DNA of 64,000 bases, from NCBI GenBank assembly GCA_034188985.1, contig JAXHVT010000066.1, positions 8,064 to 72,063 of the forward strand, given 5' to 3'. The notes below the pieces were generated by a model. That model was not told the DNA's origin. It made no database searches and was given only the letters and a program-made list of their open reading frames with translations. This DNA comes from Actinomycetota bacterium. Its GTDB lineage: Bacteria > Actinomycetota > Geothermincolia > Geothermincolales > RBG-13-55-18. The stretch's first letter is position 1. Every line of letters starts with the position of its first letter. Positions 2,060-64,000 of the stretch are shown here, in pieces. Both the position numbers and the translations under genes were made by a program.

Positions 2060-3778
2060 ATGACCCCGGAGGAGAGGAAGATGTACATGCGCCGGCTCTG
2101 GCTGGGATGGCGGCTTCTGCGCTCCTTGACCCTTTTCCTGATGGACGAGCACAGGCGCGGAACTCTCAAGGAGAACCTGCGCAGCATCAGGGAGGCGCGC
2201 TCCCTGTCGATGGCCAGGGACATGTCCCACGCCGAGCTGCTGGAGGAGAAAGCGGAAAAACTCTGCGACCGGCCCCTTCTCTACTTCAAGGACCAGGTTT
2301 TCAGCTATCGTGACATGAACCTCAACGCCAACCGCGTTGGCAACTTCCTGGCGGGGATGGGGGGCGGACCCGGCAGGGGCCTGGCTATCATCATGAGAAA
2401 CTCGCCCCGCTGGCTGGACGTATTCTTCGGCCTCGAGAAGATAGGCATGTATACCGTTCCGGTGAACATAGCCCTCAGGGCAGATCAGCTGGCTTACGTG
2501 ATCGACAACTCCGATGCGGAGTTCGTGGTTATAGACCACGACCTTCTGCCCATCTACCGGGCGGTGGAGGACAAGTTGGATAAGATACAACGAGTCATCG
2601 TCAATACCCGGGGAGCCCCGGACGATTTCGTTCTCCCCACGGGCGTCATGAGCCTTGACGACGCCTACGGACCCGGCTCCGACGCCTCTACGCCGGCGGT
2701 GGACTACGACCCCGGGGACCTGTGCGTGATAATGTATACATCCGGAACCACCGGCTTGCCCAAGGGAGTCGTGTACCGCTACGAGAACAGCAACGTCAAG
2801 GCCATATCCGTCGTAGGGCGCCTGCTGACCGGAAAGAAGGACGTGGCCTACACCTGCTACCCCCTCTTCCACGCCAACGCCCTGTTCCTCACCGTCACCC
2901 CCACCCTGCATTGCGAGGGAAGCATGGCCCTGGGGGAGAGGTTCAGCGCCAGCCGTTTCTGGGACGACATCCGACGTTACGGCGTGACCACCTTCAACGG
3001 CCTGGGGGCGGTGATGCCCATCCTCATGAAACAGCCGGAGCGGGCCGAGGATGCGGACAACGAGGTACGTTTCATTCTCTCCGCCGGCTGTCCCGCGGAT
3101 ATGTGGAGGGCCTTCGAAGACCGTTTCGGCCTCGAGATATTCGAGGGATACGGGGCGGTGGACGGAGGCGGGGTGTTGCTGGTCAATTTCGGCACCGCGC
3201 CGGTGGGGTCCATGGGCAAGCCCCTGGGCGCTAGGGTGAGAGTGATAGACGCCGGGGGCGGCGACGTCCCGGCCGGGACTCCCGGTGAACTCATAGCCTA
3301 CGTGGGAGAGCGCAAGGGATCCGTGGAATACTACAAGAACCCCGAGGCCACCAGCGACAAGATGCGCGATGGTTGGCTGTATACCGGAGACCTGGTCTAT
3401 ACGGATGAAATGGGATACATATATTTCGTGGGCCGCAACACCGAGTCCATGCGGGTCAAGGGCGAGAACGTATCGGCCTACGAGGTGGAGCAGGCCGTGC
3501 TGCAGCATTCCGATATCCTGGAGTGCGCGGTGTTCGCGGTTCCCTCGGAGCTGGCCGAGGACGACATCATGGTCACCCTGGTCCCGGTGGAGGGAAAAGA
3601 AGTGGACCCCTCCACCCTGCCCGCGTTCCTCTCCGATAAGCTGGCGAAGTTCGCTATCCCCCGCTACTTTCGGGTTATGGAGGAACTCCCCAAGACGGAG
3701 ACCCACCGGGTCATCAAGAGTGAGTTGGAGAAGGCGGGAGTAGCGCCGGATGCCTACGACGCGGAAAGGAAGGAGTGA
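2060..3778 (+). CDS. AMP-dependent acyl-CoA synthetase/ligase (FadD-like); true start probably internal (M at 2210 or 2222)
   Basis: AMP-binding motif YTSGTTGLPKGV, C-terminal lid domain; 572 aa ORF. Confidence 0.85.
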   Translation: MTPEERKMYMRRLWLGWRLLRSLTLFLMDEHRRGTLKENLRSIREARSLSMARDMSHAELLEEKAEKLCDRPLLYFKDQVFSYRDMNLNANRVGNFLAGMGGGPGRGLAIIMRNSPRWLDVFFGLEKIGMYTVPVNIALRADQLAYVIDNSDAEFVVIDHDLLPIYRAVEDKLDKIQRVIVNTRGAPDDFVLPTGVMSLDDAYGPGSDASTPAVDYDPGDLCVIMYTSGTTGLPKGVVYRYENSNVKAISVVGRLLTGKKDVAYTCYPLFHANALFLTVTPTLHCEGSMALGERFSASRFWDDIRRYGVTTFNGLGAVMPILMKQPERAEDADNEVRFILSAGCPADMWRAFEDRFGLEIFEGYGAVDGGGVLLVNFGTAPVGSMGKPLGARVRVIDAGGGDVPAGTPGELIAYVGERKGSVEYYKNPEATSDKMRDGWLYTGDLVYTDEMGYIYFVGRNTESMRVKGENVSAYEVEQAVLQHSDILECAVFAVPSELAEDDIMVTLVPVEGKEVDPSTLPAFLSDKLAKFAIPRYFRVMEELPKTETHRVIKSELEKAGVAPDAYDAERKE

Positions 3779-3782
3779 ACGC

Positions 3783-5030
3783 ATGAGCGAAAACGTTTAC
3801 ATAATCGGAGCGGGCATGATCCGTTTCAACAGGTACCCGGACTTAAGCATCAAGCAGATGACCGCCGAGGCCATGCAGGCCCTGTTCGAGGACATCGCGG
3901 TGGATAGGAAGGATATCCAGGCGGCATGGTTCTCCAACTCCGGCTGGGGCATGAGCCAGGGGCAGCACTGTATCCGGGGGCAGGTGGCGCTGTCGCCCCT
4001 GGGTATACAGGGCATACCCATCACCAACGTGGAGAACGCCTGCGCCGGGGGCTCCAATGCCCTCAGGGGAGCCTGGATGAGCGTCAAGGCCGGCCTCTAC
4101 GACCTGGTTCTCGCCGTGGGGGTGGAGAAGGTATATTTCCCCGAGGACCGCAAGAAGATGATGGAGGGGTTCGCCGCGGGGGCGGACGTCGAGTTCGTGC
4201 ATAACATAATAGAGGCCTTTCAAGCCGACGCCGCCAGGGAGGCCGCCGAGGAGGGAACGGAGGGCGAGGAGAAGAAGGGCGGCGACCACACCGCCTTCAT
4301 GGATATATACGCCATGGGTGCCCGCATGCACATGAAGACCTACGGGACCACTCAGAGGCAACTGGCGACCATCGCCGCCAAGAACCATCACAACGGTTCC
4401 ATGAATCCCATGGCCCAGTACCAGATGGACATGAGCGTGGAGGATGTAATCGACGACTACCAGGTGGCCTATCCTCTTACCCGCGCCATGTGCGCGCCCA
4501 TCGGGGACGGGGCCGCGGCGGCCATCGTCTGCTCGGAGCGGGCGTTGAAGAGGTTCCCGGAAGCCAGGCCGGTACGTATCCTGGCCTCCACCCTGGCCTC
4601 CGGCTCCATGCCGGACAGCGGCCTGGAGACAATCGGCAGGCGGCTGGGTGAGGAGGCTTTCGAGATGGCCGGCCTGGGACCGGAGGATCTGGACGTGGCC
4701 GAAGTCCACGACGCCACCGCCTTCGGGGAGCTCATGCAGACCGAGGAGCTGGGTTTCTGTCCACGGGGCGAGGGAGGCCCTTTCGCCGAGTCCGGGGCCA
4801 CCTCCCTGGGTGGCAGGATACCCGTGAACACCAGCGGGGGCCTGGAGTGCCGCGGACACCCCATCGGGGCCTCGGGCCTGGCCATGGTCTACGAGGTAGT
4901 GACCCAGTTGCGCGGGGAGGCCGGACCCAGGCAGGTGGAGGGCGCGCGTACGGGCCTGGTCGAGAACGGCGGGGGTTTCATCGGTATGGGCGAGGCGGCC
5001 ATGTGCGTTCACATATTGCAGCGTATCTAG
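3783..5030 (+). CDS. thiolase-like protein, SCP-x/nsLTP-type (propanoyl-CoA C-acyltransferase family)
   Basis: N-term VYIIGAGMIRF, CAGGSNAL, C-term GLVENGGGFIG motifs typical of SCP-x thiolases; RBS GGAAAGGAAGGAG before ATG 3783; ends TAG. Confidence 0.8.
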   Translation: MSENVYIIGAGMIRFNRYPDLSIKQMTAEAMQALFEDIAVDRKDIQAAWFSNSGWGMSQGQHCIRGQVALSPLGIQGIPITNVENACAGGSNALRGAWMSVKAGLYDLVLAVGVEKVYFPEDRKKMMEGFAAGADVEFVHNIIEAFQADAAREAAEEGTEGEEKKGGDHTAFMDIYAMGARMHMKTYGTTQRQLATIAAKNHHNGSMNPMAQYQMDMSVEDVIDDYQVAYPLTRAMCAPIGDGAAAAIVCSERALKRFPEARPVRILASTLASGSMPDSGLETIGRRLGEEAFEMAGLGPEDLDVAEVHDATAFGELMQTEELGFCPRGEGGPFAESGATSLGGRIPVNTSGGLECRGHPIGASGLAMVYEVVTQLRGEAGPRQVEGARTGLVENGGGFIGMGEAAMCVHILQRI

Positions 5031-5035
5031 CTGAC

Positions 5036-5195
5036 GCATGCGATCGGGCGACGATCTGTGTAAGAGCGACTGTACGAAAGATGATACAGGGAAACCAGTC
5101 GCCTGGAAGGAGACGGAGCGAGCCGCAGGCGAGCGTAGCGAGGTCCAGGCCTGGCACGCATGCGATCGGACGATGATCTGTGTAAGAGCGACTGT
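5036..5195. repeat. two direct copies of a 38-bp element (GCATGCGATCGGnCGAyGATCTGTGTAAGAGCGACTGT) at 5036-5073 and 5158-5195
   Basis: Read directly: near-identical 38-mers 122 bp apart in the thiolase/ACAD intergenic region. Confidence 0.7.
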
Positions 5196-5296
5196 GACGA
5201 CCGGAGGGAGGGCGCCGCGAGGATGAAAAGCACAAGGAGGCAAAAGAGGGTCGCGAGACCGTAATCATAGCGATGTAGAGATCGGGGGTAGATGGG

Positions 5297-6433
5297 ATGA
5301 AATCGACGGTCAGCGAAGAACTGAAGATGCTGGACGAGATGGCCAGGGACTTCGCCGTGAAGGAACTGGTGGACGATCGGGAGGAGAACGACAGGTTTCC
5401 CTTCGGGCCGCTCTTCGACCACGTGCTGGTCAAGGCCCAGGAGGTCGGTTTCTACGGCGTGCTTCTGCCGGAGGAGATGGGCGGTTCCGCCGAGCCGGTC
5501 TCCGCTCTCTGCCTGGTGCTGGAAGAGGTGTGCCGGGCTGATGCCAGCCTGGGCGGGACGGTGTTCACCAACGCCCTGGCCCAGGAGATAGTATCGCTGG
5601 CCGGGGGCGAAAACCTGCTCGGGGAGATCGTCTCCGGGGACGGTTCCTTCAAGGAGACCCTGCTGGCCTTCCCCTCCTTCAACAACCCGGGGGAGGTGGA
5701 GAACGCCGCCAGGGCGGCGGACAAGGACGGCGGATACCAGCTCTCGGGAACGGTGGAATACGTGGTGCTGGGCGGCCTGGCCTCCCGAGCACTCCTGCCC
5801 GCCCGCGTGGAGGGCGTGGAGGGTTACTCCTTCTTCCTGGTGGACCTGGGAGAGGCGGGGATCGAGGTATCGGAACCCGTGCTCAGCCTGGGCATGCACG
5901 CCTGCCCCGCCGTCGACATGACCCTGGAGGTTGTTCCAGGCCGGTTGCTGGGGAAGGAAGGCGAAGGAGATCGCTGCTTCGAGGGGGCGGTGGACCGACT
6001 CTCGGTGGCCGCCGCGGCCATGGCCGCCGGGGTGATGAAAGGATCATTCCTGGATGCCCTGGAGTACGGCAAGCAGAGGGAGCAGGGTGGAAGGCATATA
6101 GTGGATTGGTCGGGATTGAGGATGGTCCTGGCGGAGATGGTTATCAAGGCCAAGGTGGCCGATATGCTGGTGGAAAAAGCCGCGTACGCCGTGGACCACG
6201 AGGAGCCGGGCTGGAAGCTGGCGTCGCGCTCCGCCGCCATTCAGGTGCAGGAGTTGGCCGTGGACGTGACCACGGACGGCATTCAGGCTTTGGGCGGCTA
6301 CGGCTACATGAAGGACTACGGCCAGGAGAAACGTTTCCGCGACGCCAAACAGGTACAGTCGCTCATGGGTATAACGCCGCTGCGTCGGCTCAAGTTTATC
6401 GAGCGCGTCATTGGCGGGGAAATACCCTGGTGA
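5297..6433 (+). CDS. acyl-CoA dehydrogenase family protein
   Basis: ACAD-like N-, middle and C-terminal domains; C-terminal GGYGYMKDYGQEKRFRDAK motif. Confidence 0.8.
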   Translation: MKSTVSEELKMLDEMARDFAVKELVDDREENDRFPFGPLFDHVLVKAQEVGFYGVLLPEEMGGSAEPVSALCLVLEEVCRADASLGGTVFTNALAQEIVSLAGGENLLGEIVSGDGSFKETLLAFPSFNNPGEVENAARAADKDGGYQLSGTVEYVVLGGLASRALLPARVEGVEGYSFFLVDLGEAGIEVSEPVLSLGMHACPAVDMTLEVVPGRLLGKEGEGDRCFEGAVDRLSVAAAAMAAGVMKGSFLDALEYGKQREQGGRHIVDWSGLRMVLAEMVIKAKVADMLVEKAAYAVDHEEPGWKLASRSAAIQVQELAVDVTTDGIQALGGYGYMKDYGQEKRFRDAKQVQSLMGITPLRRLKFIERVIGGEIPW

Positions 6434-6449
6434 GGATAAGGGGGAAAAC

Positions 6450-7952
6450 ATGTTCGAAGGAGTAAATACGTCGACCCTGTTGGAGAAGCATCCCAGGCTT
6501 GAGGACGTGATGTGCAGCCTGGATACGGTAGGCAAGATGCCCAGGGGTATAAGCGATGAACTTCGGCAGGCCGTGGCCCTGGCCCGCCGCTTCAACGAGA
6601 CGGTGGCGCGCCCCTACGCCCTGGAGCTGGACCGCAAGATGCAGGAGGACCCCACCTATCTTCCCTGGGACCTGGTGGAGGAGATAAACCGCTGGGGTTT
6701 CTATACCGGCTGGATACCCAAGATCTTCGGCGGCAAGGGTTGGAACCTGGGAACCCTGATAGCCGTCGTGGAGGAACTGTGTTCCGAGTGCGCCGGCATA
6801 GGCAACCTCATGGGGGTGCAGTACTTCGGCATCTCCATCCTCTTCGCGGGCTGGAACGTGCGCATCATCGACAAAGTCTGCCGCGAGGTGGTGGAGGGAG
6901 AGCGTACCGGCAAGCCCTGCCTGGTCGCGGGCCTGGTCACCGAGCCGGGGGCGGGAACCGACGCGGAGGAGGTGGAGCTGCTCTCCAGGGCACAGGTGAA
7001 GTGCCAAGCCCGCAAGGTGGAGGGGGGATACGTGGTCAAAGGCACCAAGGTCTTCATCTCCAACGGCCATGTCTCCACCTGGCACATGCTCCTGGCCTAC
7101 GAGGATCTGGAACGCCCCGAGGAGACCATGATGTGCCTGGCGGTCAAGAACGGCACAAAGGGCTTTTCTTTCGGCAGGATGGAGAAGAAGATGGGCCAGA
7201 AAGGCTGCCCGGCCAGCGAGATGGTCTTCGAGGACTGCTTTATCCCGGACGAGAACGTCTGCATCAACTCGGAGCAGATAAAGAAATTGAAGCATTCCGC
7301 CAAGGAGACGGGGCAGCAGGTTATCGACTTCGTGGTCTCCCTCACCCGCCCCGGCGTGGGGGCCATGGGGGCCGGAGTGGCGCGGGGCGCCTTCCAGGAG
7401 GCCCTGGCCTTCGCGCGCGAGACCGAGGTGGACGGGAAGCCGCTCGTCAACCACGAATGGGCGCAGTGCCTTCTGGCGGAGATGTACGCCAACGCCGCCC
7501 TCGCCCGGCTGACCTACATGGAATGCAACCATGTAACCGGCCTCTACGGCATGGCATGGATGCTGAACTTAAAACCGCTTTATTACTATATGAAGATCAT
7601 GCCCACCTCGGTTATGGACCGCATTTTTCCCGCAATCAACAAGCTGGACGCCACCATGAATATATTCCGCAGGATCATCATGGACTGGCAGAAGGACGAG
7701 GACGCCAAACGGGCTTCGGGCTGGGCCTCCCTCTCCAAGTTCGCGGCGACCGACTTGGGGATCAGGAACTGCCACCTGGCCGTGGAGCTGATGGGGCAGG
7801 CGGGCATAAGGCATGAGAATAGAGTAGAAAAGTTCCTCAGGGATTCCAAGCTGCTGCAGATCTACGAGGGCACCAACCAGCTCAACCGCCTCAATCTCTT
7901 CAAGTGCATGGTAGCCCCAGGCGCCCCCGAGGCCCGGGTATTCGAGGAATAG
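6450..7952 (+). CDS. acyl-CoA dehydrogenase family protein (long form)
   Basis: ACAD motifs (..VFISNGHVS.., ..IYEGTNQLNRL..); RBS AAGGGGG before ATG 6450; ends TAG. Confidence 0.8.
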   Translation: MFEGVNTSTLLEKHPRLEDVMCSLDTVGKMPRGISDELRQAVALARRFNETVARPYALELDRKMQEDPTYLPWDLVEEINRWGFYTGWIPKIFGGKGWNLGTLIAVVEELCSECAGIGNLMGVQYFGISILFAGWNVRIIDKVCREVVEGERTGKPCLVAGLVTEPGAGTDAEEVELLSRAQVKCQARKVEGGYVVKGTKVFISNGHVSTWHMLLAYEDLERPEETMMCLAVKNGTKGFSFGRMEKKMGQKGCPASEMVFEDCFIPDENVCINSEQIKKLKHSAKETGQQVIDFVVSLTRPGVGAMGAGVARGAFQEALAFARETEVDGKPLVNHEWAQCLLAEMYANAALARLTYMECNHVTGLYGMAWMLNLKPLYYYMKIMPTSVMDRIFPAINKLDATMNIFRRIIMDWQKDEDAKRASGWASLSKFAATDLGIRNCHLAVELMGQAGIRHENRVEKFLRDSKLLQIYEGTNQLNRLNLFKCMVAPGAPEARVFEE

Positions 7953-7965
7953 GAAAGGAGGAGAA

Positions 7966-8727
7966 ATGACCGAGATACTGGACGTCGAGGAAAAGGCCCC
8001 GGCCAAGGCGTCGGAGTTCGCCGATATGTACATCTGGCACGAGGGCATGGACTGGAACCCAGTGGAGAAGGTGATCCTGGAGCGCCGTAGCGTGCGAAGG
8101 TACAAGGACAAGCAGGTCCCGGAGGCGCAGGTGCGCCGCATACTGGAGGCGGGGAGATTCGCTCCCACGGCGGGCAACTCCCAGTCCTGGAAATTCGTGG
8201 TGGTGCGTGACCGCGATATGATCGATGATATGCAGAGGTACGTTCAGCTGCGCTGCAAGATGTTCAAGTTCTTTCTCAATTGGCAGGTGAGCCCCCTGGG
8301 TAAGATCGCCTGGTTCTATCATCAGGCTGCCGCCCGGCTGATGCCCAACCTCATGCACCCCATCCCCTTCGGTGCCATCACCCTGATAGCCGATGGCAAG
8401 CTCAAGCTCTTCCACGACGCCCCCACCGTCATACTCATCCTCATGGACACGCGAGGAGCGGCCAAGCCCCCTGTGGATATAGGCATCTGCGGCCAGAACA
8501 TGGTGCTCGCCGCCCACAGCATGGGTCTGGGGACCTGCTGGGTGGGATTCGTGGAGGTCTTCAAGTTCGGGACCAAGTGGAACAAGAAGCTGGGCGTCGA
8601 ATGGCCCTACAGGCTGGTGGAGGGCGTCGCCCTCGGTTATCCGGTGGGCAATCCGGATGGCATGATCGAGCGCGAGCTGCAGGAGATCGACTGGTGGGAA
8701 GACGGCCGCAAGAGAACGGTATTCTAG
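7966..8727 (+). CDS. nitroreductase family protein
   Basis: RRSVRRY...AGRFAPTAGNSQSWKFVVV nitroreductase signature; ends TAG. Confidence 0.75.
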   Translation: MTEILDVEEKAPAKASEFADMYIWHEGMDWNPVEKVILERRSVRRYKDKQVPEAQVRRILEAGRFAPTAGNSQSWKFVVVRDRDMIDDMQRYVQLRCKMFKFFLNWQVSPLGKIAWFYHQAAARLMPNLMHPIPFGAITLIADGKLKLFHDAPTVILILMDTRGAAKPPVDIGICGQNMVLAAHSMGLGTCWVGFVEVFKFGTKWNKKLGVEWPYRLVEGVALGYPVGNPDGMIERELQEIDWWEDGRKRTVF

Positions 8728-8746
8728 AGGGAATGGGAGGTAGACA

Positions 8747-9079
8747 ATGGCTTATCTCACCTGGAAAGAGAGGACGACCATACCCACCTTCGACAATCCT
8801 GAACACGGGACATCGGGCCGCGTGGTTATAGACCACGACAAGTGCAACGGCTGCGGCAACTGCGCCATGATATGCCCAGGCAACTGCCTTTACGTGGCCG
8901 GGGTGGGCAAGGACAAGAAGGCCTACATGATAGACGCGGTCGTTCCCGACTGCATGTCCTGCAACGACTGCCAGGCCATGTGCCCCAGGGACGCCATCGA
9001 GGTGTGTTTGATCTACGACTTCGGGTATTTCTACAAGGTATTGCACCGGGGCAACCTGGCCTATCCCAGGAACTTCTGA
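8747..9079 (+). CDS. 4Fe-4S dicluster ferredoxin-like protein
   Basis: Two CxxCxxC(x3)CP motifs (CNGCGNCAMICP; CMSCNDCQAMCP). Confidence 0.75.
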   Translation: MAYLTWKERTTIPTFDNPEHGTSGRVVIDHDKCNGCGNCAMICPGNCLYVAGVGKDKKAYMIDAVVPDCMSCNDCQAMCPRDAIEVCLIYDFGYFYKVLHRGNLAYPRNF

Positions 9080-9317
9080 GACCGGATCAGCGTGGAAGCC
9101 GCCTGTACGGGAAGTCGGCGATGTGAGGGGGCGGCTTTCCGCCGCTTCCATGTCCGGAGTCCGACGCTTGGGAGCCGGACCGGGATTCGAGCGCGAGCGG
9201 GCCAATAGCGCCGTGATCCGGCTGGCCCGGACACGATAATCGTAATCGCGGGAGTCCGATTCCAGCCTTGATCCGGGCTAACCCAGAGACTCGAGACGGC
9301 ATGACTGAGAGGGAGAG

Positions 9318-10662
9318 ATGGAGATGGAAGAGGAACGCCCCTACTGGAACATGGACATGGAGTCCAGGCTCAACACCCCGGAGATGCGGGATATCCAGCT
9401 GGAGAAACTGAAGGTACTGCTCAAGAGGCTCTACGACAACGCGCCCTTCTACACGCGGCAGTTCGACGCGGCGGGGCTCAAGCCGGAGAAGGTGAAAAGC
9501 TTCGAGGACTTCTCGGCAGCGGTGCCCCTCCTCGACAAGTACGACCTGAGGGACATGGTGGCCGAGTTCGGGGGAGATATCCTCAGGTCATCGACCAGAT
9601 CATCCCGGTGGGCGTCGACGACCTGAACATCATGGCCACCACCACCGGCACGCCCACTCCCTATCCCATGACCACCCACGACATGGAGGACGTATGGGGG
9701 GAGGCCATGGTCAGGGACATGTGGCGGGCCGGGGTACGCTCCCGCGACCACATCCTCTTCTGCTTCGCCCTGTCCATGGTCATCGCCGGCATTCCCGCCA
9801 TGATGGGCTGCCAACGCCTGGGGGCCATGGCCATACCGGTGGGGGCGGAGGTGGGCACCGACCGCATCCTGCTCATGCAGACCCTCTTCCGGGGCACCGT
9901 GTATTCCGGTACGCAGTCGCTGGCCGAGTACCTCATAGAGAAGTGCAAGGAGCAGGAAGAGATCCCGGGGACCTGAGCCTGCGCATCATGACCTGCGGCG
10001 GGGAGCCGGAGGCAGGCATCCCCGAGGTCAGAGAGAGGCTGGAGTCCGCCTACGGGACCCGCGTCTTCGACGCCGGGACCGGCTTCGGCTTCTCCTGCGA
10101 TTACCCCGAGTACCGGGGCATGCACTGGACCGCCGACGACCTGGCCTACTACGAGCTGGTGGACCCGGACACCAGGGAGCCGGTGCCCCTTGAGGACGGC
10201 GCGCAGGGGGAGGCCCTGTTCACCATGCTGGAGGGCGACGGCATGGCCTGGCTGCGCACCAGCCTTGGCGACGTCCACCAGGTGTTCACCTACCCCTGCC
10301 CATGCGGCAAGCCGGCTTCCGCTACCGCATCGTGGGGCGCACCGACGACATGCTCAAGGTCAAGGGGGTCATCGTCTACCCCACCCAGGTGGAGGGGGTG
10401 GTGTCATCGTTCGTGCCCGAGGTTACCGGGGAGTGGCGCATCGTGCTCACCGAGAAGCCGCCACGGGTGGTCCCGCCCCTCAAGGTGAAGATAGAGAGGG
10501 GGGGAGTACCCGGCGGAGAGGCTGCCCGAGCTGGAGGGAAAGATAAAAGACGCCTTCCATACCAGGGCCAAGTTCAGGCCGGAGATCATCTGGGCCGAGC
10601 CCGGCGAGCTGGAGCGCTCCACCTACAAGGGCCAGGCTTTCGAGAGGCTGTACGGGGAATGA
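9318..10662 (+). pseudogene. phenylacetate-CoA ligase (PaaK)/coenzyme F390 synthetase family gene disrupted by at least 3-4 frameshifts
   Basis: PaaK-like segments lie in frame 0 (9318-9626), frame 2 (9608-9976), frame 1 (about 9980-10310), frame 0 (10302-10500) and frame 1 (10501-10662, ...AEPGELERSTYKGQAFERLYGE*). Shifts coincide with runs cccgggg (9970s) and ggggggg (about 10495). Confidence 0.75.
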
Positions 10663-10819
10663 GGCCGGCAAGGCGGCGCCCTCCCGATCCACGGCTTGTA
10701 TCGTCAAGGGGTATGAGGAGCATGTCCGGGCCGGACCTCGGCACGCGGATATGCATGGATGGAGGTGTTGCTTGATATACTGGTGACTTGACAGGCATAG
10801 CGGCGGCTTCAGGAGGTGT

Positions 10820-11671
10820 ATGTGGATGGGTAAGAGGGTGGCTGTCATCGCCCCCATGGGAATGGATCCGGAGATAGATATCCTGAGACAGATCATCGAG
10901 GGCGTCTTCATCCGTAATGCGGAGAAGGTCAAGGAAGGGGATACGGAGGTGGTCTTCCATCTCCTCAACTCCGGCTTCACGGACATCGACTTCTTCGGCT
11001 ATCTCTGCTTCAACGTGCGCAACGATTACGAGTTCTTCGAGGCGGCGCTGAAGGTGGGGGAGGAGGGATACGACGCCCTGGTCATCCACTGCGCCTTCGA
11101 TTCCATGCTCGATCCCCTGCGCCAGGCCCTGGATATCCCGGTGGTCGGGGTGCTGCAGTCCGGGATGCTCCTGGCCACCATGATGGGCCACCGCTTCGGC
11201 GTGGTCACCTTCAGCAAGACCGTGGTCCCCTATATAGAGGATATAATCGCCCGCTACGGTTTGAGGGACAGGGCGGTCCCGGTGCGCAGCTCGGAGAGCG
11301 CGGGCGAGGAGATGCTCATGAGCCTGGCCGACGCCCACGAGCTCATCGAGACCTTCTCCGACGCGGCGCGGAAATGTATAGCCGACGGGGCCGAGGTCCT
11401 GGTGCCGGGCTGAACGGTCATCGCGCCTGCCTTGAGCATGGCACCCGGCTGCGAGGATGAGTACCCCAATGGTTTCGTCCAGGTCGACGGGGTCCCAGTA
11501 GTCGACGTTATAAGCTCCGGCGTGAGGTTGGCCGAGGTCATGTCGTCCCTCAAGGAGGCCGGCCTGTCCTGGGTCAGCCGGGCCGGAATCTACCGCCGGC
11601 CTGAGCAGGAGATGATGGAGCGCAACCTGGAGGATTTTCCCTACCACGGATCCGGTGCCTGGCACTATTAG
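10820..11671 (+). CDS. Asp/Glu/hydantoin racemase family protein (hydantoin racemase/arylmalonate decarboxylase-like) with in-frame TGA at 11411-11413; candidate selenocysteine codon, otherwise a nonsense-mutated pseudogene
   Basis: ORFs 10820-11413 and 11432-11671 are in the same frame, separated only by the TGA. First catalytic-Cys signature LVIHCAFDSM present. TGA lies at LVPG[TGA]TVIAP, matching PROSITE racemase signature 2 ([LIVM](2)-x-[AG]-C-T) at the Cys position. Hairpin-forming sequence 11419-11458 lies downstream. Confidence 0.6.
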
Positions 11672-11804
11672 CGCCGGGGTTCGCGCGGGCGCCGTCGTCC
11701 ATGGCGCGTGACGGATTCCGGCCGCACGGCCGCGTGGTCGGAGATGGCGATCATGTGGAGAAAGGTCACCGTTGAGTGACGGAGCAGCATTAAAGGGGGC
11801 GGCG

Positions 11805-12437
11805 ATGGATATCTTGACCAACATCAAGGAAGGTATCACTGCAGGGGACCCGGTAAACGAACTGGTGCAAGAGGCTCTCTCGTCTATCGAGCCCGAGCTG
11901 ATACTGAACCGGGGGGTGGTGGCCGGCATACGGAGAGCCGGCGAACTGTGGCAGGAGGGGGAGTATTTCCTGCCCGATGTCATCCTGGCGGCGGAGACCT
12001 TCAAGGAGGCCATGGAACTGCTTGAGCCCCGCATCGGCGGCGGGGCGGATAAGGGAGCGGGCAGCTACCTCATAGGAGTGGTGGAGGGTGACATGCACGA
12101 CCTGGGCAAGTCCATAGTCATCGCCATGCTCACCTCCGGCGGTTTCGAGGTCATAGATCTGGGGTCGAACGTACCCATCCAGACCTTCGTGGACAAGGTC
12201 AGGGAGCACCAACCGGACATCGTGGGCGTGGGGGCCTACATGTCCACCACCATGCTCCTCATGAAGGACGTTGTCGAGGCCCTGGAGAAAGCCGGCCTGC
12301 GCGACGGGGTCAAGGTCATGGTGGGAGGGGTCCCCATAACCCCCCAGTACGCCGAGGACGTGGGGGCGGACAGCTACGGAAGGGACGCCATGGAGGCGCT
12401 GGAGAACGCCAGAAAACTCATGGGGGTGGAGTCATGA
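11805..12437 (+). CDS. corrinoid (cobalamin-binding) protein of methyltransferase systems (MtaC/MtbC/MttC-like)
   Basis: B12-binding DxHxxG motif (GDMHDLGK) plus N-terminal helical cap; RBS AAAGGGGG before ATG 11805 (alternative TTG 11772). Confidence 0.8.
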   Translation: MDILTNIKEGITAGDPVNELVQEALSSIEPELILNRGVVAGIRRAGELWQEGEYFLPDVILAAETFKEAMELLEPRIGGGADKGAGSYLIGVVEGDMHDLGKSIVIAMLTSGGFEVIDLGSNVPIQTFVDKVREHQPDIVGVGAYMSTTMLLMKDVVEALEKAGLRDGVKVMVGGVPITPQYAEDVGADSYGRDAMEALENARKLMGVES

Positions 12438-13765
12438 GCGCGAAAAGGAAACTCGTCGCGGCAGGCCTTGCGGCGGGCGCCGCCGCCGGAGCCTGCGCCT
12501 TGAGCCCGCCCTACATGAGGAGCAGCGCCCGCGGTTTTCTGTACGCGGCCGGGTTGAAGCAGGTGCCGCTGCCGGGACTGGGTAGGGTGGTGGCCACCAT
12601 ACTGGGGAAGCCGGACTACCCCCCCTGCTTCGCCCAGATGCACGAGCACGTTCAATATATCTCCGGGGTCGCGCCCCGGGAGTTCTACCTCACCGACGGC
12701 TACAAGATGGCCGTGACCACCAAGCTGGTCAACGACTACTACGGCATGGACGTGCCCCTGCCGTTCACCGACACCTACAACATCGAGGCGGAGGCCATGG
12801 GCGCGACCATGATAGCAGGGGACATAGACATGCCCACCATCGATTACAGGAAGCCGCTTGTAGAGAATATCTCGGATATAGACAGGATCGACATAGACTT
12901 CCAGCCGGACTGGGGGAGGATCGGGTACGTAATCGACACTATCAGGGCCATGAGGGAGGTGTGCGGGCTGCCCGAGCTGATCATCTTCTGCGCGCCCTTC
13001 AGCCTGGCGGTGGGCCTGCGCTCCTACCCCAAGCTCATCCGGGACATGCGCAAGGATCCCCCGGCCGCCCACGCCCTGATGACCTGGATAACCGAGGAGG
13101 TGCACCCCCGCTACCTGGGCCTGCTCAAGAGGGAGACGGGGGCCAGGATAGGCATCGGCGCCGACGCTTGGGCCGCCTTCCCCAACCTCACCGTGGACAT
13201 GGTCGAGGAATGGGTCGTCCCCTACAATTCCAGGCTCAGGCGGCGTATGAAGAAGGAGGGCATGGCCCTCATCCTCATAGGCGCCGCCGACTACTGCGAG
13301 GAACAGGCCGCCAGGTTCGACCGGGAGACCATGGAGGCCTGCTGGCTGACGCATTCCAGGAGCATAGTGGGCGATTGGGCCGTGAACGGCATGCCCTTCA
13401 TGGGCATGGGACGCACCCAGGAATGGCCCCTGGAGTGGATGCAGGAGTTCGCCGTGCGCGGCACCTCGAAGCGCTACGGCAAGAAGGCCATACTGGCCAG
13501 CGTCAACGCCAGGTTCATCAGGGAGGGCCCGGCGGAGGCCATAGTGGATTTCGTCAAGAGGACGGTGGATGTCCTGGCCAGGGAGGGCAAGTTTTTCATA
13601 TTCCTGGCCCAGGTTCCCGCGGCCACTCCCCCCGAGCACGTCCACGCCGCGGTGGCGGCGCTCAAGACCTACGGAAGGTACCCCATAGCCGAGGACCTGG
13701 ACGGGGTGGAATTCCGCGTACCGGAGTTCGAGCCCTTCGACGTGTGGCTGCGCAAGCAGGGATAA
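12434..13765 (+). CDS. uroporphyrinogen-decarboxylase (URO-D) family methyltransferase (MtaA/CmuA/O-demethylase MT-I-like)
   Basis: URO-D-fold conservation through 443 aa; ATGA overlap with corrinoid-protein stop suggests translational coupling. Confidence 0.75.
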   Translation: MSAKRKLVAAGLAAGAAAGACALSPPYMRSSARGFLYAAGLKQVPLPGLGRVVATILGKPDYPPCFAQMHEHVQYISGVAPREFYLTDGYKMAVTTKLVNDYYGMDVPLPFTDTYNIEAEAMGATMIAGDIDMPTIDYRKPLVENISDIDRIDIDFQPDWGRIGYVIDTIRAMREVCGLPELIIFCAPFSLAVGLRSYPKLIRDMRKDPPAAHALMTWITEEVHPRYLGLLKRETGARIGIGADAWAAFPNLTVDMVEEWVVPYNSRLRRRMKKEGMALILIGAADYCEEQAARFDRETMEACWLTHSRSIVGDWAVNGMPFMGMGRTQEWPLEWMQEFAVRGTSKRYGKKAILASVNARFIREGPAEAIVDFVKRTVDVLAREGKFFIFLAQVPAATPPEHVHAAVAALKTYGRYPIAEDLDGVEFRVPEFEPFDVWLRKQG

Positions 13766-13838
13766 AGGGCACCGGCCTTCGGCGTACAACACACGGAGGC
13801 AGGCCGTGGGCCGGTGATTGCGACAAGGAGGTTTCGCT

Positions 13839-14699
13839 TTGCTTGACAGGCTTTTCGGGAGGCGGAGAGGCGAACACGATTTCAGTGGAAAGATCGTGCT
13901 GGTGACGGGGGCCGCATCGGGCATCGGCCGCGGCGTGGCCCTGGCCTTCGCCCGGGCCGGCTCCGACCTGGTGCTGGTCGACGTGGACGGGGGGCGCCTG
14001 CGCGAGACCGCGGATATGGTGGAGGCGTCCGGCTCGCGCTGCCTGGCAAAACGCGTGGACGTATCCAGCCGTTCGCAGATGGAGGCCATGGCAGGTGAGG
14101 TGCTGTCCGATTGGGGTCGAGTGGACATCCTGATCAACAACGCCGGCGTGGGGGTAGGCGGCGAGCTGGTGAATATACCCATGGAGGACCTGGAATGGAT
14201 AGTGGGCATCAACCTCATGGGCGAGATATACGGCACGCGCCTCTTCCTCCCCCGCATGATCGAGCGGGGCGAGGGACATATCGTCAACGTGGCCTCCCTG
14301 TCCGGCCTGGTGCTCCTGCCCTTTCACCTCGCCTACACCACCACCAAGTTCGGGCTCACCGGTTTCTCCACCGCCCTGTGGGCGGAGACCAAGCGACACG
14401 GGGTGGGCGTTACCCTGGTGTGCCCGGGGGCGGTGAAGACAAATATCATGGAGCACACCCGCGCCCACGCGGGCGGCGATAAACAGGAGGAGGCGACGGA
14501 GAGGTTCGGCCGCCTCCTGCAGGAGAGGGGCAAGAGCCCGGACGAGGCGGCGGCGTTTATCCTCGACGCCGTGGCGGCAAAGAGGTTCCTCTGCCTGATG
14601 GGGGCGGAGGCCTATATCCTCTATTACCTGACCCGGCTGTCCCCCGGCTTCATGCGCCGGCTGGTGGCCTCGATAACCGGCCTCTTGTCGAAAGGATAA
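13839..14699 (+). CDS. SDR family oxidoreductase
   Basis: TGAASGIG Rossmann motif, NNAG, catalytic YxxxK (YTTTK); RBS AAGGAGG before TTG 13839 (longer ORF from 13818). Confidence 0.8.
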   Translation: MLDRLFGRRRGEHDFSGKIVLVTGAASGIGRGVALAFARAGSDLVLVDVDGGRLRETADMVEASGSRCLAKRVDVSSRSQMEAMAGEVLSDWGRVDILINNAGVGVGGELVNIPMEDLEWIVGINLMGEIYGTRLFLPRMIERGEGHIVNVASLSGLVLLPFHLAYTTTKFGLTGFSTALWAETKRHGVGVTLVCPGAVKTNIMEHTRAHAGGDKQEEATERFGRLLQERGKSPDEAAAFILDAVAAKRFLCLMGAEAYILYYLTRLSPGFMRRLVASITGLLSKG

Positions 14700-14824
14700 A
14701 CTCCGGGGAATGGAGAGGTACACTCACCTAGATCTCATCCCGGATTGCATGGCCGCCGGGTAGTCATCTCCCCGCGTAGCCGCATGGCGGAGACCGCTGT
14801 GCAAGTCTCTCACGATTTGGTCGA

Positions 14825-15322
14825 TTAAGTCTTTCTCCATCCGGCGATAAGCCTGCCGCATTCCTTTGCGGGAAGCCTCCTGCCCCTGGCGACCATTTTC
14901 TCCAGCGCATCGCTGGCATCCCTGGCATCGAAAACGCCGGATTCGACAAGTCGATCCAACAACCAGAGCGTACCATGTACCACGACACCTTCCCCCTCGG
15001 CGGCTTTCCTTAAAGCCTTGTCTCCGGTTAGAAGAGGCATTTTTCTCGATACGGCGATCCCCAGGAGAATAGCGTCGTTTCTCTTGATGGCTGGGTACCT
15101 CACGATGTAGGTTATCAGGCTTTGGAGTGTGGGGCCATCGAGCCCTATCGCTCTTAATCCCATGTCGGCGAGGTCTGAGACGCTGGGAGTTTCCAGTTCA
15201 TCATGCATTATCAGGTCGGTCGTTAAGAACTCGAAGTAAGACTCGAACAAGTAGTTGAGTGATTCCCCCGCCACGAAGTCGAATATAATGCAGGCGTCGA
15301 TCAGGAAAGACGTTCTCTTCAC
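14825..15322 (-). CDS. PIN-domain protein (COG2405-like putative nuclease)
   Basis: Conserved acidic residues (LIDACIIFD, HDELE, LTGDKALRKAA) and C-terminal GTLWLL motif typical of PIN; lies 6 nt downstream of the HTH-ImmA gene in a lower-GC island. Confidence 0.6.
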   Translation of the reverse strand: MKRTSFLIDACIIFDFVAGESLNYLFESYFEFLTTDLIMHDELETPSVSDLADMGLRAIGLDGPTLQSLITYIVRYPAIKRNDAILLGIAVSRKMPLLTGDKALRKAAEGEGVVVHGTLWLLDRLVESGVFDARDASDALEKMVARGRRLPAKECGRLIAGWRKT

Positions 15323-15328
15323 TGATGG

Positions 15329-16453
15329 TCACTTTACAGTTTCTTCGTCCGTCAAGGGCCAGAACAAACCGGCGTATTGTGAGGGAGAGAAAATATCCTT
15401 CGCGCTTTTCAGTGAAGAAGGCGCGATCTCCCGAATACCGGTCGCCACATCCACATACGATGAGCCCAGGAGTTCGACCGCCTTTGACTCGGAGATTACC
15501 TCCTCGGCCAGAAGATGCAGGATGATCTTCTCCATCCTTTTGGGTTTATCGGGTTCTATTTGATCGAAGGGCTCCCGTTTATCGAAATCATTGCTCCTGA
15601 AATACTTAAAAAAAGCCATGTAGAAGCCGCTTCCTATAATCCCGAGATCCTTGGCCCTGTAAACCCACGCCTGCATGCTCAGCTTGTACTTCCGTTTCAA
15701 TAGATACAACTCGTTCAGGTTTAGGGCGTGCCTTTTATGTCCCAACTCCTCGTATACGAGTTCCCTGGGTACCAGGAAAGCACCCGCGAACCGGTGGGCC
15801 GCTTTCTCCTCGTCGATCCCATCTCCCAACAGCATTAGCAGATGACCGAGTTCGTGGGCGAGATTGAAGAACTGCCGGTCACCGGGCAGTTTGTCCTTGA
15901 GGGCGATGACGGGGTCCTCATCGGCGTAGAAGGTGCATGCGTCGAATTCCCGGCATGCTTCGAAGAGGCCTATCTTCACGCCCCTGTCCTCGAGGATATC
16001 GATCATGCTCTCTACGGGATCGAGTCCCAGGCCCCAGTGGTTACGCAGATTGACGGCTATTCCCTCGATATCTTCAAGTTTCTCTGCAAACCTGTTCATA
16101 TCAACCGGTAGGCGTTTCCTGAACTCGATCCTTGAGGGAAGCAGGCTTTCGGCCTCCATGTATCTTTCCACCCACTCCCTTACCTGCCCGGTCAGCTTCT
16201 GCTCCTGTTTCCTGGGCATGGACAGGCGGCAGCGAAAAGCCATCGCCTTTAACTCGGGGCCCACCGGCCGCAGAAAGAACTCGGTCTTGATACCCAGGGC
16301 TTTCGCCAGCCTTACAAGCACTCCCGAGCTGGGCATGTCATGCCCGTTCTCGTATTTCGATATGGCCATGGCGCTGACGCCCGAAGCCTCTCCCAGCGCC
16401 CTCTGGCTCAAGCCCTTCATGTGGCGTGCCATCTTGATCCTCTCGCCGATCAT
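15329..16453 (-). CDS. XRE-family HTH fused to ImmA/IrrE (M78, COG2856) zinc metallopeptidase
   Basis: N-terminal Cro/C1 HTH (LSQRALGEASGVSAMAISKYENG); HEXXH (HELGHLL) peptidase motif; RBS GGAGG before ATG 16453. Confidence 0.8.
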   Translation of the reverse strand: MIGERIKMARHMKGLSQRALGEASGVSAMAISKYENGHDMPSSGVLVRLAKALGIKTEFFLRPVGPELKAMAFRCRLSMPRKQEQKLTGQVREWVERYMEAESLLPSRIEFRKRLPVDMNRFAEKLEDIEGIAVNLRNHWGLGLDPVESMIDILEDRGVKIGLFEACREFDACTFYADEDPVIALKDKLPGDRQFFNLAHELGHLLMLLGDGIDEEKAAHRFAGAFLVPRELVYEELGHKRHALNLNELYLLKRKYKLSMQAWVYRAKDLGIIGSGFYMAFFKYFRSNDFDKREPFDQIEPDKPKRMEKIILHLLAEEVISESKAVELLGSSYVDVATGIREIAPSSLKSAKDIFSPSQYAGLFWPLTDEETVK

Positions 16454-16571
16454 GCCAGCCACCTCCTTTCACCGGTTTACACAATAGCAAATATATTTCT
16501 ATATGTAAACTGCTAAGCCTGGAAGTTGATTTCCTGAAATGTCACCATGTACTGGTAAAATATAGTGTCGA

Positions 16572-18419
16572 ATGAAGGCTATTGCAGGGCGATTTAACGG
16601 TATGCCCGTTTGCTATGTTTTTCTGTCAAAGCTCCTTAGCGGGAATCTGTTATTAACAGACGGGAAAGCATTCCCCTATAGCAACTACAACAAGCGAAAT
16701 TATGAGCATACTGCAGAGGAATTACGGGCTAATGAAGATTGGCATAGGGGAATATTACCTGACGAGGAGGAACAAAGACTGAGGCGATTAACCGTTTCTC
16801 CTTCAAGGGAGAAGCTCGCACCAATAAGAGACTGCAATTTGGAGGCTCAACGGTTAATCTCACAAGCCAAAGATTTATGTGGCAGGTCCGTCACGACCCG
16901 TGTTATTGAAGATTTGAAGAACAGGCCCAGTGTTAATAGATGGGTCGAACAAGGCCTTCAACTCCATGCCGAACAACAATCTCCAAAGTGCCTCTTCTGT
17001 AATCAATCTCTACCACCGGGTCATCTTGCCAGGCTGGAAGCTCATTTCAGTGAAGAATACAAGCAGCTCATCGGTGAAGTAGGGAAACTGGAGCATGATA
17101 TTGAAGAAGAACGCAAGCGATTGGAATCAGGCCGCTTACCCGAGAAGGCATTATTGTATGAAGAATTCCAAGATGATTATGGGAATGCTATTGAAAGATA
17201 CGAAAGCGAGAAAGAGGGGTACCTGGACCTCCTTGATTATCTGCAGAACCGGCTGGAATCCAAAAAAGAAGATCCCTTCATGGATATTCAATGTGATTAT
17301 GAATCTTGGCGGATAGATATGGAAACCATGTCAAGCGTGAACGGATTGATAAGAAGACACAATGAAATGAGCGATAATTTTCAGAGAAAAGTTGAAGAGG
17401 CAAGGAGGGAACTCGAGGAGTCATATGTGGCGAAGGAGCTTGTACGGTTCACCGAATTGAGTGATCAGAAAAAATCCCAAGAGGAAATGATCAATAAGCT
17501 TGATAGAGAATTGTCCGGTATAAAGGAAAAGATCGAGCAACTGGAGCTGGGTATCAAGGATCATCTGCGGCCAGCGGAAGAATTGAACGAAGAGATCGGG
17601 CAATACCTAGGGCATGACGAGCTTCGCTTTGAGGCCAGCGAGGCCGAGGCAGGCTATAGCATTGTCCGTGAAGGGGAGCCCGCACGCTCATTATCCGAAG
17701 GGGAAAAGACGGCTCTGGCTTTTCTATATTTTCTGAGAACACTTACGGACAAGGATCTCGAGATAGAAGAAGGAATCGTTGTGATTGACGACCCTGTTTC
17801 CAGCTTGGATTCAACCTCACTGTACAATGCTTTTGGCTTTATGAAGGATCGTGTACAAGAGGCAGGTCAACTATTTGTTCTTACCCATAATTTCCTGTTC
17901 TTCCGGCAGGTTAAGAACTGGATGTCATATCTTAAGCAAAGAAAGAAGAAAGATATCGGATTTTATATGCTTCTTACCGAAAATGTGATAGATGGAAGAT
18001 GTTCTAGCATCGTGATATTAGATGAATTATTGAGAGACCATGAGACTGAATATCACTATCTTTTCAAACTTGTTTATGAAGCCGCAAATAGCGAACCTGG
18101 CAAAGGGAAGTTGCGAGACTACTATCATCTGCCAAACGTGGCACGCAGGCTTATGGAGGCTTTCCTTGAATTTACATTTCCAAATGAGAAGAATCTATAT
18201 TCAAAGATAGATCAAACAAATATCCTTGCAGCAAAGAAGGCGCGAATTAAGAGATTCTGTGATACTCATTCGCATAACGCTAGAATAAGCCAGCCTGAGC
18301 ATGATGCTTCAATCCTCGGTGAAACGCCGGCGATTATGAAAGATATCATGGTAATGATAGCCGAAACAAATCATGATCATTATGATCGCATGAAGGAGCT
18401 GGTGACCCCATCATCATGA
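16572..18419 (+). CDS. AAA_13-family (PrrC/RloC-like) ABC-type ATPase with C-terminal Rx4H (HEPN-like) nuclease motif; appears 5'-truncated and is probably non-functional
   Basis: ABC signature LSEGEK, Walker B/D-loop VVIDDPVSSLD, zinc-hook-like CLFC, H-loop THNF, C-terminal KRFCDTHSH (Rx4H). No Walker A (GxxGxGKT) anywhere; only about 140 aa precede the CxxC where full-length relatives have about 260. Lower GC than surroundings. Confidence 0.6.
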   Translation: MKAIAGRFNGMPVCYVFLSKLLSGNLLLTDGKAFPYSNYNKRNYEHTAEELRANEDWHRGILPDEEEQRLRRLTVSPSREKLAPIRDCNLEAQRLISQAKDLCGRSVTTRVIEDLKNRPSVNRWVEQGLQLHAEQQSPKCLFCNQSLPPGHLARLEAHFSEEYKQLIGEVGKLEHDIEEERKRLESGRLPEKALLYEEFQDDYGNAIERYESEKEGYLDLLDYLQNRLESKKEDPFMDIQCDYESWRIDMETMSSVNGLIRRHNEMSDNFQRKVEEARRELEESYVAKELVRFTELSDQKKSQEEMINKLDRELSGIKEKIEQLELGIKDHLRPAEELNEEIGQYLGHDELRFEASEAEAGYSIVREGEPARSLSEGEKTALAFLYFLRTLTDKDLEIEEGIVVIDDPVSSLDSTSLYNAFGFMKDRVQEAGQLFVLTHNFLFFRQVKNWMSYLKQRKKKDIGFYMLLTENVIDGRCSSIVILDELLRDHETEYHYLFKLVYEAANSEPGKGKLRDYYHLPNVARRLMEAFLEFTFPNEKNLYSKIDQTNILAAKKARIKRFCDTHSHNARISQPEHDASILGETPAIMKDIMVMIAETNHDHYDRMKELVTPSS

Positions 18420-18933
18420 GTATTATCGGAGTAAGCTTCTTAAAGATGGGGCAATCAACCGGAGCCGGAACCAATCTGGTGTGGTAGTGCTCCTTCGCCG
18501 GGATGATCGAGAAAATCCTCCGCGGGTACCGGAACCAAGCCATCGAAACGCTGCAGGTCATAGAGAACTTGATCGGACTGTCGAGTTAGATGCTCGAGGT
18601 CGGACGCAGGGGTGAATACCTGGGGCTTGTGGAGAAAGAGATGGACTTCCAAGATGCTTTTAAGGCAAACCATAGCGCGGTTAGAGTCTAGAGTGAAGAA
18701 GCGCTCCCGGTTGTTGTGAAGGTGGTAACCAAGACGGTGTGTACAGGGGTTGTCATCATTAAGCGGCAAGGGTTAGTGCCTGCGCAAACCCGCGAGGGTT
18801 GGTGAGGCGCACCTCGATTAAGCGAGGTCATCCTCCTTCGATTGACAAGTATGGGCCGCTGCCCGATACTCGGATGAGTGCCTCATATCGATGAGGCGGC
18901 GCACGAATAGAGCCGAGCCGAAAGATACTGGAT

Positions 18934-28525: not shown

Positions 28526-28546
28526 AGACGAGACGGGAGGCCGGCC

Positions 28547-30393: not shown

Positions 30394-30394
30394 A

Positions 30395-54497: not shown

Positions 54498-54527
54498 ACC
54501 TCCGTATAAACTCTGTACCAGCTCACT

Positions 54528-63898: not shown

Positions 63899-64000
63899 GG
63901 CAATTTAATAAAAGACAGGTTCTTGCTCTCCGAGTCCTTACACCTAAGGCCGGTGGCTATGGTGAAGGACCGATAGGGTGCGGATGGAAACGATCGTGCC

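Follow-up and report, generated by a model that had tools for sequence, protein, structure and literature searches.

Does an in-frame TGA codon in a racemase-family gene of an Actinomycetota bacterium encode selenocysteine (Sec), or does it end the protein? The question is raised by a stretch of 64,000 nucleotides (hereafter the window) from a metagenome-assembled genome (MAG; GenBank assembly GCA_034188985.1, contig JAXHVT010000066.1, positions 8,064 to 72,063). An initial annotation, made from these letters alone, had joined two open reading frames (ORFs) across the TGA and proposed a candidate selenoprotein. Comparative analysis of homologs and of the downstream RNA indicates that the product of the gene is very probably a selenoprotein belonging to the Asp/Glu/hydantoin racemase superfamily, one that would probably form a new family. 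The elements on which this reading depends are as follows.

10820-11671, + strand: racemase-family gene, read through one internal TGA; 283 codons from ATG 10820, or 281 from ATG 10826.
11090-11092, + strand: TGC codon of Cys91, the first catalytic cysteine, in the motif VIHCAFD; it aligns with the first-cysteine motif (liiNCfgD) of the fungal epimerase OpaE.
11411-11413, + strand: in-frame TGA, predicted Sec198, at the second catalytic-cysteine position (VLVPG-U-T); Cys in 66 homologs and TGA in 17 loci.
11414-11668, + strand: 85 codons after the TGA, the C-terminal part of the second domain; conserved in frame and aligned with the C-termini of racemases in the PDB and of OpaE.
11425-11443, + strand: conserved hairpin core (+15 to +33), the putative apical part of a bacterial Sec insertion sequence (SECIS); two registers are possible, with the loop beginning 17-20 nt past the UGA.

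The TGA at 11411-11413 is the single internal stop of the gene, and the frame is unbroken from 11414 to the terminal TAG (11669-11671), so the two ORFs indeed form one frame. The position 11432, listed as the start of the second ORF, is merely the first TTG picked by the ORF lister. Orthologs and database gene calls use ATG 10826 (MGKRV...), which leaves the first two codons uncertain. When the TGA is replaced by Cys, the protein matches PF01177 (Asp/Glu/hydantoin racemase; E=8.8e-27, 94.7 bits compared with a cut-off of 31) over residues 74-238, the TGA position included. The first catalytic-Cys signature (IHCAFD) is intact, as had been noted, and Cys91 is invariant across all 23 Sec-type clusters of homologs. 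Around the TGA, the predicted protein reads AEVLVPG-U-TVIAPALSMAPGCE, and the segment beyond includes an invariant Cys211 (11450-11452) and the FPYHGSG tail. By homology to solved structures, the protein would fold into two pseudo-symmetric domains, with the catalytic pair placed where they meet. The NCBI annotation of this gene is a 195-residue "aspartate/glutamate racemase family protein". A search of NCBIfam (release 20) with the U-to-C protein gave no equivalog-level match, the best sub-threshold score being 17.9 bits compared with a cut-off of 231. The specific function of an allantoin or hydantoin racemase, given by some automatic annotations (the JGI name is "allantoin racemase"), is not supported, as there is neither an NCBIfam equivalog nor a neighborhood of purine or hydantoin catabolism.

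A search over 5.8 billion proteins returned 147 homologs, which were grouped in clusters at 90% identity. Twenty-four distinct clusters, including that of the window, are truncated at one alignment column and are 41-100% identical to the window protein (41-80% for the other 23). Nearly all of these truncated proteins have exactly 195 residues and end in ...VLVPG, with one ending in ...VLVPS. The next column holds Cys in 66 of the 97 full-length homologs, these 66 having 262-296 aa, which bears out the proposal that the TGA falls on the second catalytic Cys. For the corresponding DNA, genome and metagenome collections provided 17 independent loci of the Sec type, which do not include P0062, the most divergent member and the one ending in VLVPS. 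The codon after VLVPG is TGA in all 17 and TAA or TAG in none, such that the alignment of orthologs suggested by the initial annotation finds Cys in the 66 homologs and TGA in 17 of 17 loci. The initial annotation had also named orthologs that end at this position as an outcome that would speak against Sec. Instead, all 17 loci continue in frame for about 85 conserved codons to a common C-terminus (...FPYHGSGxW), with the protein pattern ...MAPGCE..YPNG...VDGVPVVDVIS.GVRLAEV...WISR...FPYHGSG.W.

The carriers comprise five Actinomycetota MAGs, three Deltaproteobacteria/Desulfobacteraceae MAGs, and metagenome contigs. Besides the assembly of the window, the carrier MAGs include GCA_016931915.1 (JAFGDU01), GCA_964462595.1 (CAYWXM01), QZKE01, and GCA_964473615.1 (CAYYPQ01). 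The MAG JAFGDU01 (Zod_Metabat.1188) has two diverged paralogs, each with an in-frame TGA (L002 5071-5915 and L004 3359-4200), with identities of 73% and 64%, respectively, to the window protein. The TGA of the window is also present in an independent Logan assembly. Two loci have assembly peculiarities. In L041 (ENA contig_170534), nearly all genes are chopped into short ORFs, as is typical of uncorrected long-read indel errors, and the racemase TGA and the frame beyond it are kept despite this. The racemase copy of the metagenome contig L021 (730-1546; 43% identity) has an internal frameshift, no TGA, and no frame after VLVPG; this copy is A+T-rich past VLVPG and looks like a decayed gene or a chimeric assembly.

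The sequence downstream of the TGA behaves as coding sequence. The ratio of nonsynonymous to synonymous differences per site (pN/pS; Nei-Gojobori method, all pairs) is 0.46 for residues 3-197 and 0.43 for residues 199-283. In addition, the G+C content at third codon positions after the TGA is 0.81, the same as in the real genes of the window. Judging from these substitution patterns, the frame after the TGA is translated and selected. TGA is nevertheless a genuine terminal stop in 12 of 16 orthologs and ends 25 of the 49 likely genes of the window, in line with the earlier remark that TGA is a normal stop here; therefore, the genetic code is not reassigned. Only the internal TGA of the racemase gene is read through, and TGA is otherwise an ordinary stop.

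The TGA position is a catalytic one in characterized relatives; read as Sec, the codon would supply a chalcogen analogue of the second catalytic Cys. A sequence search of the PDB matched an allantoin racemase (5lfd; E=4e-10), the Pyrococcus hydantoin racemase (2eq5), OpaE (9qbx), and Klebsiella AllR (3qvj). In every one of these alignments, the TGA column corresponds to the Cys of a G-C-T/G motif. The TGA aligns with Cys199 of OpaE, which is aligned over residues 71-277, and with Cys184 of allantoin racemase. The catalytic dyads of OpaE (Cys90/Cys199) and KpAllR (Cys79/Cys184) carry out a stepwise 1,1-proton transfer, and OpaE with the C199S mutation keeps no more than 0.3% of its activity (PMC12661438).

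The RNA following the UGA contains a hairpin whose core is conserved among the orthologs. In register 1, GCC-UGC-[CUUGA]-GCA-U-GGC, 92% of cells are paired over 18 orthologous sites, and the deltaproteobacterial copies have a compensatory U-A in place of C-G as the third inner pair. RNAalifold picks this register unaided. In register 2, UGCC(U.U)U-[GAGC]-A(U)GGCA, 86% of cells are paired. The longer stem-loop drawn in the initial annotation is exactly the minimum free energy (MFE) structure given by RNAfold for 11411-11460 (-18.1 kcal/mol), and its inner core is conserved. Its outer helices are not: only 66-73% of their cells are paired among the orthologs, with the pair 15-39 broken in 12 of 17 sequences, and the long stem was rejected as a conserved element in favor of the core alone. 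Accordingly, the absence of any conserved structure in the TGA-containing orthologs, which had been named as another outcome unfavorable to Sec, was not what was found. Moreover, synonymous changes are suppressed at the hairpin. The lowest synonymous diversity of the whole gene in 7-codon windows lies on it, at residues 202-208 (0.20, compared with a mean of 0.45), and the synonymous rate of codons 199-206 is half of that elsewhere (0.31 compared with 0.64).

The published model of the bacterial SECIS (bSECIS) calls for a loop of 3-9 nt, an upper stem of at least 4 bp, a G in the first two loop positions, a spacing of 16-37 nt, and an MFE of -7.5 kcal/mol or lower (PMC13188914). The window hairpin fits in spacing (17-20 nt), stem length, and MFE (-18.1 kcal/mol over 50 nt). 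Agreement with the bSECIS geometry, the loop-G rule included, is seen in the deltaproteobacterial copies and in L017, whose stem is 6 bp long, whose tetraloop is GCAC or GAGC, and whose spacing is 20 nt. A covariance model of the TGA plus hairpin, run over 325 kb, retrieved only racemase-family sites and a weak echo in the Cys-type gene of L038. The Cys-type relatives in L036 and L037 have no hairpin, and that of L038 keeps part of it. Taken together, the evidence for a SECIS is moderate: its conservation is clear, and its canonical features are partial.

Conservation of the TGA at the catalytic Cys position, selection on the downstream frame, and the conserved hairpin all support the proposal of a selenoprotein, whereas several other observations weigh against it. 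The 64-kb window and some 325 kb of flanks from related loci yielded neither selA, selB, selC (tRNA-Sec), nor selD, and no other selenoprotein gene turned up in the window or the fetched flanks. The individual searches were consistent in this respect: ARAGORN and Rfam on the window found only a tRNA-Thr and a molybdenum cofactor (Moco) riboswitch and no tRNA-Sec, ARAGORN on 20 related loci found no tRNA, Pfam on 20 of the larger genes in the window detected neither SelA, SelB, nor SelD, and the neighbor annotations of nine contigs contain no Sec machinery. On the favorable side, among the lineages concerned, Deltaproteobacteria are rich in selenoproteins and some Actinobacteria have the Sec trait (PMC5029168). 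As for the hairpin, the stem-loop of the window taken alone is unremarkable for a G+C-rich sequence (z=-1.07; 31 of 200 shuffles fold equally well), its covariation amounts to essentially one evolutionary event, and the loop-G rule is satisfied in the window copy solely if a U.U mismatch is tolerated, as the earlier caveat about a non-textbook loop had anticipated. The Rfam SECIS families have no match in the window, and a permissive threshold on 11380-11500 gave chance hits only. Because the Cys-type L038 partly keeps the hairpin, its sequence is partly set by the conserved A-P-A-L-S peptide. Finally, the window genome does contain truly broken genes, namely a PaaK-like gene and a gene with two in-frame TAGs.

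These broken genes, one frameshifted and the other with two premature TAGs, give some substance to the reading that the TGA is a nonsense mutation or a sequencing error and the gene a pseudogene here, the more so as TGA is a normal stop in this genome. However, this very TGA is shared by 17 independent loci and by 24 protein clusters, with identities as low as 41% and with carriers in two phyla. Purifying selection acts on an intact downstream frame, and the codon is seen again in the Logan assembly. The nonsense mutation, which the initial annotation had offered as its alternative, is effectively refuted by the conservation across the 17 loci and is hardly credible. It is also very unlikely that the TGA is a true stop and that the enzyme assembles from two polypeptides, the N-terminal one 197 residues long and the C-terminal one started anew at Met207 (ATG 11438) or TTG 11432. 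An ATG is found at codon 207 in most Sec-type genes, where Cys-type relatives have Ile, Val, or Leu, and pN/pS is 0.92 in the eight codons between the TGA and Met207, a value that is uninformative because synonymous change is suppressed there. Such a split would nevertheless delete a residue that is indispensable in characterized relatives, as the OpaE C199S mutant indicates (at most 0.3% activity; PMC12661438). Furthermore, L017 has AAG rather than ATG at codon 207, no Shine-Dalgarno-like sequence precedes ATG 11438, and the eight intervening codons never have indels or stops and keep the Pro and Leu positions of the Cys-type proteins. The stop is also always TGA, which a mere terminator would not need to be.

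A third explanation, improbable as well, is that the UGA is read through without Sec, either because a near-cognate tRNA or a suppressor tRNA supplies Trp, Cys, Arg, or Gly or because Cys enters via the Sec pathway when selenium is scarce, with the hairpin stimulating read-through. The lack of Sec machinery in the window and in the related flanks and the partial fit of the hairpin to the canonical model are both compatible with this. Yet, of the candidate residues, only Cys or Sec occurs at or suits this catalytic position in the Cys-type relatives, and the frequent use of TGA as a terminal codon (12 of 16 orthologs and 25 of 49 window genes) argues against any global recoding. Insertion of Cys would also leave the strict conservation of TGA hard to explain, as TGC and TGT are one mutation away and a Cys codon has arisen in one twig of the family (P0003/P0004). 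Decoding of the UGA as Sec thus remains the preferred reading of the racemase gene.

A scan of the window for coding-like extensions across TGA codons found that the racemase gene alone qualifies. The TGA at 28523-28525 was rejected as a recoding site; it is the ordinary boundary between pstS and pstC, which share a frame by chance (27608-31183, + strand). Likewise, the TAG at 54528-54530 marks the boundary between a histidine kinase and a response regulator that are in the same frame by chance (54096-55850, - strand). A CMD gene lies next to the L033 ortholog; its family includes known Sec forms, but this copy is of the Cys type (CEPC). The Moco riboswitch aptamer detected by Rfam lies at 63916-64000 (+ strand), where it is cut by the end of the window, and scores 43.7 bits compared with a gathering score of 36.

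A neighbor-joining tree built on the N-terminal domain groups the Sec-type genes in a single clade, whose sister clade is of the Cys type and consists of P0020, P0033, P0040, and P0059, as is usual for pairs of Sec and Cys homologs. Both the Sec clade and the Cys-type relatives nearest to it retain Cys186 and Cys211. The Cys-type twig P0003/P0004 (L036 2097-2936 and L037 52-894) is nested inside the Sec clade; its members have Cys at the Sec position and have the first catalytic Cys replaced by Leu or Ser. The active site of this twig is of the one-base type, as in arylmalonate decarboxylase or EcL-DER.

The gene is flanked on the same strand by genes for a ligase and for parts of a corrinoid methyltransferase.

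9318-10775, + strand: PaaK-like (phenylacetate-CoA-ligase family; CoA, coenzyme A) gene, directly upstream of the racemase gene; its tblastn alignment hops between frames.
11772-12437, + strand: corrinoid (B12-binding) protein gene, directly downstream of the racemase gene on the same contig, annotated by Pfam.
12434-13765, + strand: URO-D-family methyltransferase gene, following the B12-binding gene on the same contig, annotated by Pfam.

The PaaK-like gene of the window is split over three frames, with frame changes at about 9585, 9955, and 10293-10502 relative to the intact orthologs in L040 and L042. The independent Logan assembly has the same fragmentation, and the gene may be either a pseudogene or a product of indel errors. 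Intact PaaK-like ligases are next to or near the racemase gene in L040, L042, L007, and L008, the one in L042 ending 30 nt before it. The pair of B12-binding and URO-D genes recurs near the racemase gene in the Actinomycetota loci L012 and L002/L039. The L042 locus, whose racemase is 77% identical to that of the window, is syntenic with window positions 2060-20382. The order common to both is thiolase, acyl-CoA dehydrogenases, nitroreductase, ferredoxin, PaaK-like CoA ligase, and racemase, and it continues with a methyltransferase component, a short-chain dehydrogenase, and, further on, a polysaccharide synthesis gene. The neighborhood differs in the other racemase loci.

A family of about 360 residues that has two CxxC pairs and no Pfam match recurs in L040, L003, and L001. 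Its copies within a few kb of the racemase gene include L040 10367-11470, L003 7568-8644, and L033 5618-6682 (- strand), and this recurrence suggests a functional link with the Sec-type racemase. The window itself has three copies, at 20410-21511 (- strand), 37757-38851 (+ strand), and 38955-40112 (+ strand). The first of these aligns in two overlapping pieces and may be frameshifted. The last has two in-frame TAGs and is probably a pseudogene. Pyrrolysine at these TAGs (39276-39278 and 39591-39593) was considered and rejected; the homologs have Lys and Glu there, whose codons (AAG/GAG) are each one substitution from TAG.

If the UGA is decoded as Sec198, the process would involve Sec-tRNA(Sec) and SelB, directed by the hairpin about 12-32 nt downstream. 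From the two-base mechanism of the family, the enzyme would be expected to invert a stereocenter beside a carboxylate or amide by 1,1-proton transfer, with one catalytic residue taking the proton from one face and its partner delivering one to the other face. The pKa of a selenol is about 5, compared with about 8.5 for a thiol. Cys91 and Sec198 would thus be chemically unequal bases. Because of its low pKa, Sec198 would be the permanently deprotonated, abstracting base, and Cys91 would be the proton donor. Such an unequal dyad may speed up one direction of the reaction or bias the reaction toward it. As for the substrate, the enzyme may epimerize an organic acid destined for anaerobic, CoA-dependent degradation, as is weakly suggested by the neighboring genes (CoA ligase, acyl-CoA dehydrogenases, thiolase, ferredoxin, nitroreductase, and corrinoid methyltransferase parts). 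Alternatively, Sec198 could have a redox or nucleophilic role, for example in a selenenyl-sulfide with Cys211 or Cys186. A more specific picture is possible and is offered tentatively, in which this protein is the first isomerase-class selenoenzyme: a cofactor-independent two-base racemase/epimerase that uses the selenolate of Sec198 and the thiol of Cys91, is effectively unidirectional or active at low pH, and serves an uncharacterized anaerobic pathway of the PaaK-like/beta-oxidation-type/corrinoid kind in uncultured Actinomycetota and Desulfobacterota.

To our knowledge, Sec serves in redox chemistry or as a nucleophile in almost every selenoprotein described. Use of Sec as the proton abstractor of a two-base racemase, if true, would extend selenium biochemistry to plain acid/base catalysis and would provide a natural Cys/Sec "unbalanced dyad" for probing directionality in racemases. 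A 2026 review of 119 prokaryotic selenoprotein families with domain identifiers has no PF01177 or racemase entry (PMC13188914), and the text of the BSepDB paper mentions no racemase-type family among its 111 families (PMC13326102, 2026). A search of the full-text literature, with subscription papers outside its scope, returned nothing relevant on selenoproteins combined with racemase, hydantoin, or Asp_Glu_race. The earlier statement that no Sec-containing member of this family had been described agrees with the two 2026 catalogues, as far as the texts of these go. The gene most likely represents a selenoprotein family that is uncatalogued so far, a Sec variant of the two-cysteine racemases. 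At present, the family is mis-annotated as a truncated protein of 195 residues plus an orphan ORF of about 80 residues. Its recognition would correct these annotations, add a family to selenoprotein catalogues and predictors, and mark the uncultured anaerobic Actinomycetota carriers as probable Sec users. We regard this as a solid and mechanistically intriguing addition, though not as a new principle.

In comparison with known enzymes, the window protein resembles the allantoin and hydantoin racemases and OpaE in its PF01177 domain, its first motif Cys, and its second motif G-[C/U]-T. The likeness to OpaE extends over a near full-length alignment that includes a C-terminal motif (FPYHG in the window, YPFSG in OpaE), and the two-base 1,1-proton transfer of KpAllR and OpaE is the mechanism to be expected from this homology. 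The identity to solved racemase structures is low (E-values from 4e-10 to 1e-4). Unlike in all of these enzymes, the second catalytic residue is encoded by TGA, as predicted Sec. In contrast to allantoin and hydantoin racemases, the gene is located among CoA-ligase, beta-oxidation-like, and corrinoid methyltransferase genes. Another point of comparison is EcL-DER, an L-Asp/Glu-specific racemase with an "unbalanced" Thr83/Cys197 pair and quasi-unidirectional catalysis (PMC12661438). By analogy, the two catalytic positions of the window protein may also be chemically unequal, with the second carrying the key residue. The imbalance would, however, come from Cys/Sec rather than from Thr/Cys.

Among selenoproteins, the VPGUxxT thioredoxin-like family (NF041383, "OS_HP5") has the V-P-G-U string in common with the window protein. 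Kinship was rejected, as the protein has no NF041383 match (E<=0.01) and its fold family is PF01177, and the shared string is coincidental. The broader pattern is that of established bacterial selenoproteins such as FdhA, GrdB, PrdB, SelD, and arsenite methyltransferase, with the UGA at a catalytic Cys position, Cys-containing homologs, and conserved flanks. It also includes a conserved hairpin that starts 12-15 nt past the UGA and has its loop 17-20 nt downstream, and some of the carriers are anaerobic Deltaproteobacteria, a selenoprotein-rich group. The hairpin differs from the canonical bacterial SECIS in being only partly canonical. Most catalogued selenoprotein families are thiol oxidoreductases with a UxxC or CxxU motif, whereas here Sec would be the acid/base catalyst of an isomerase.

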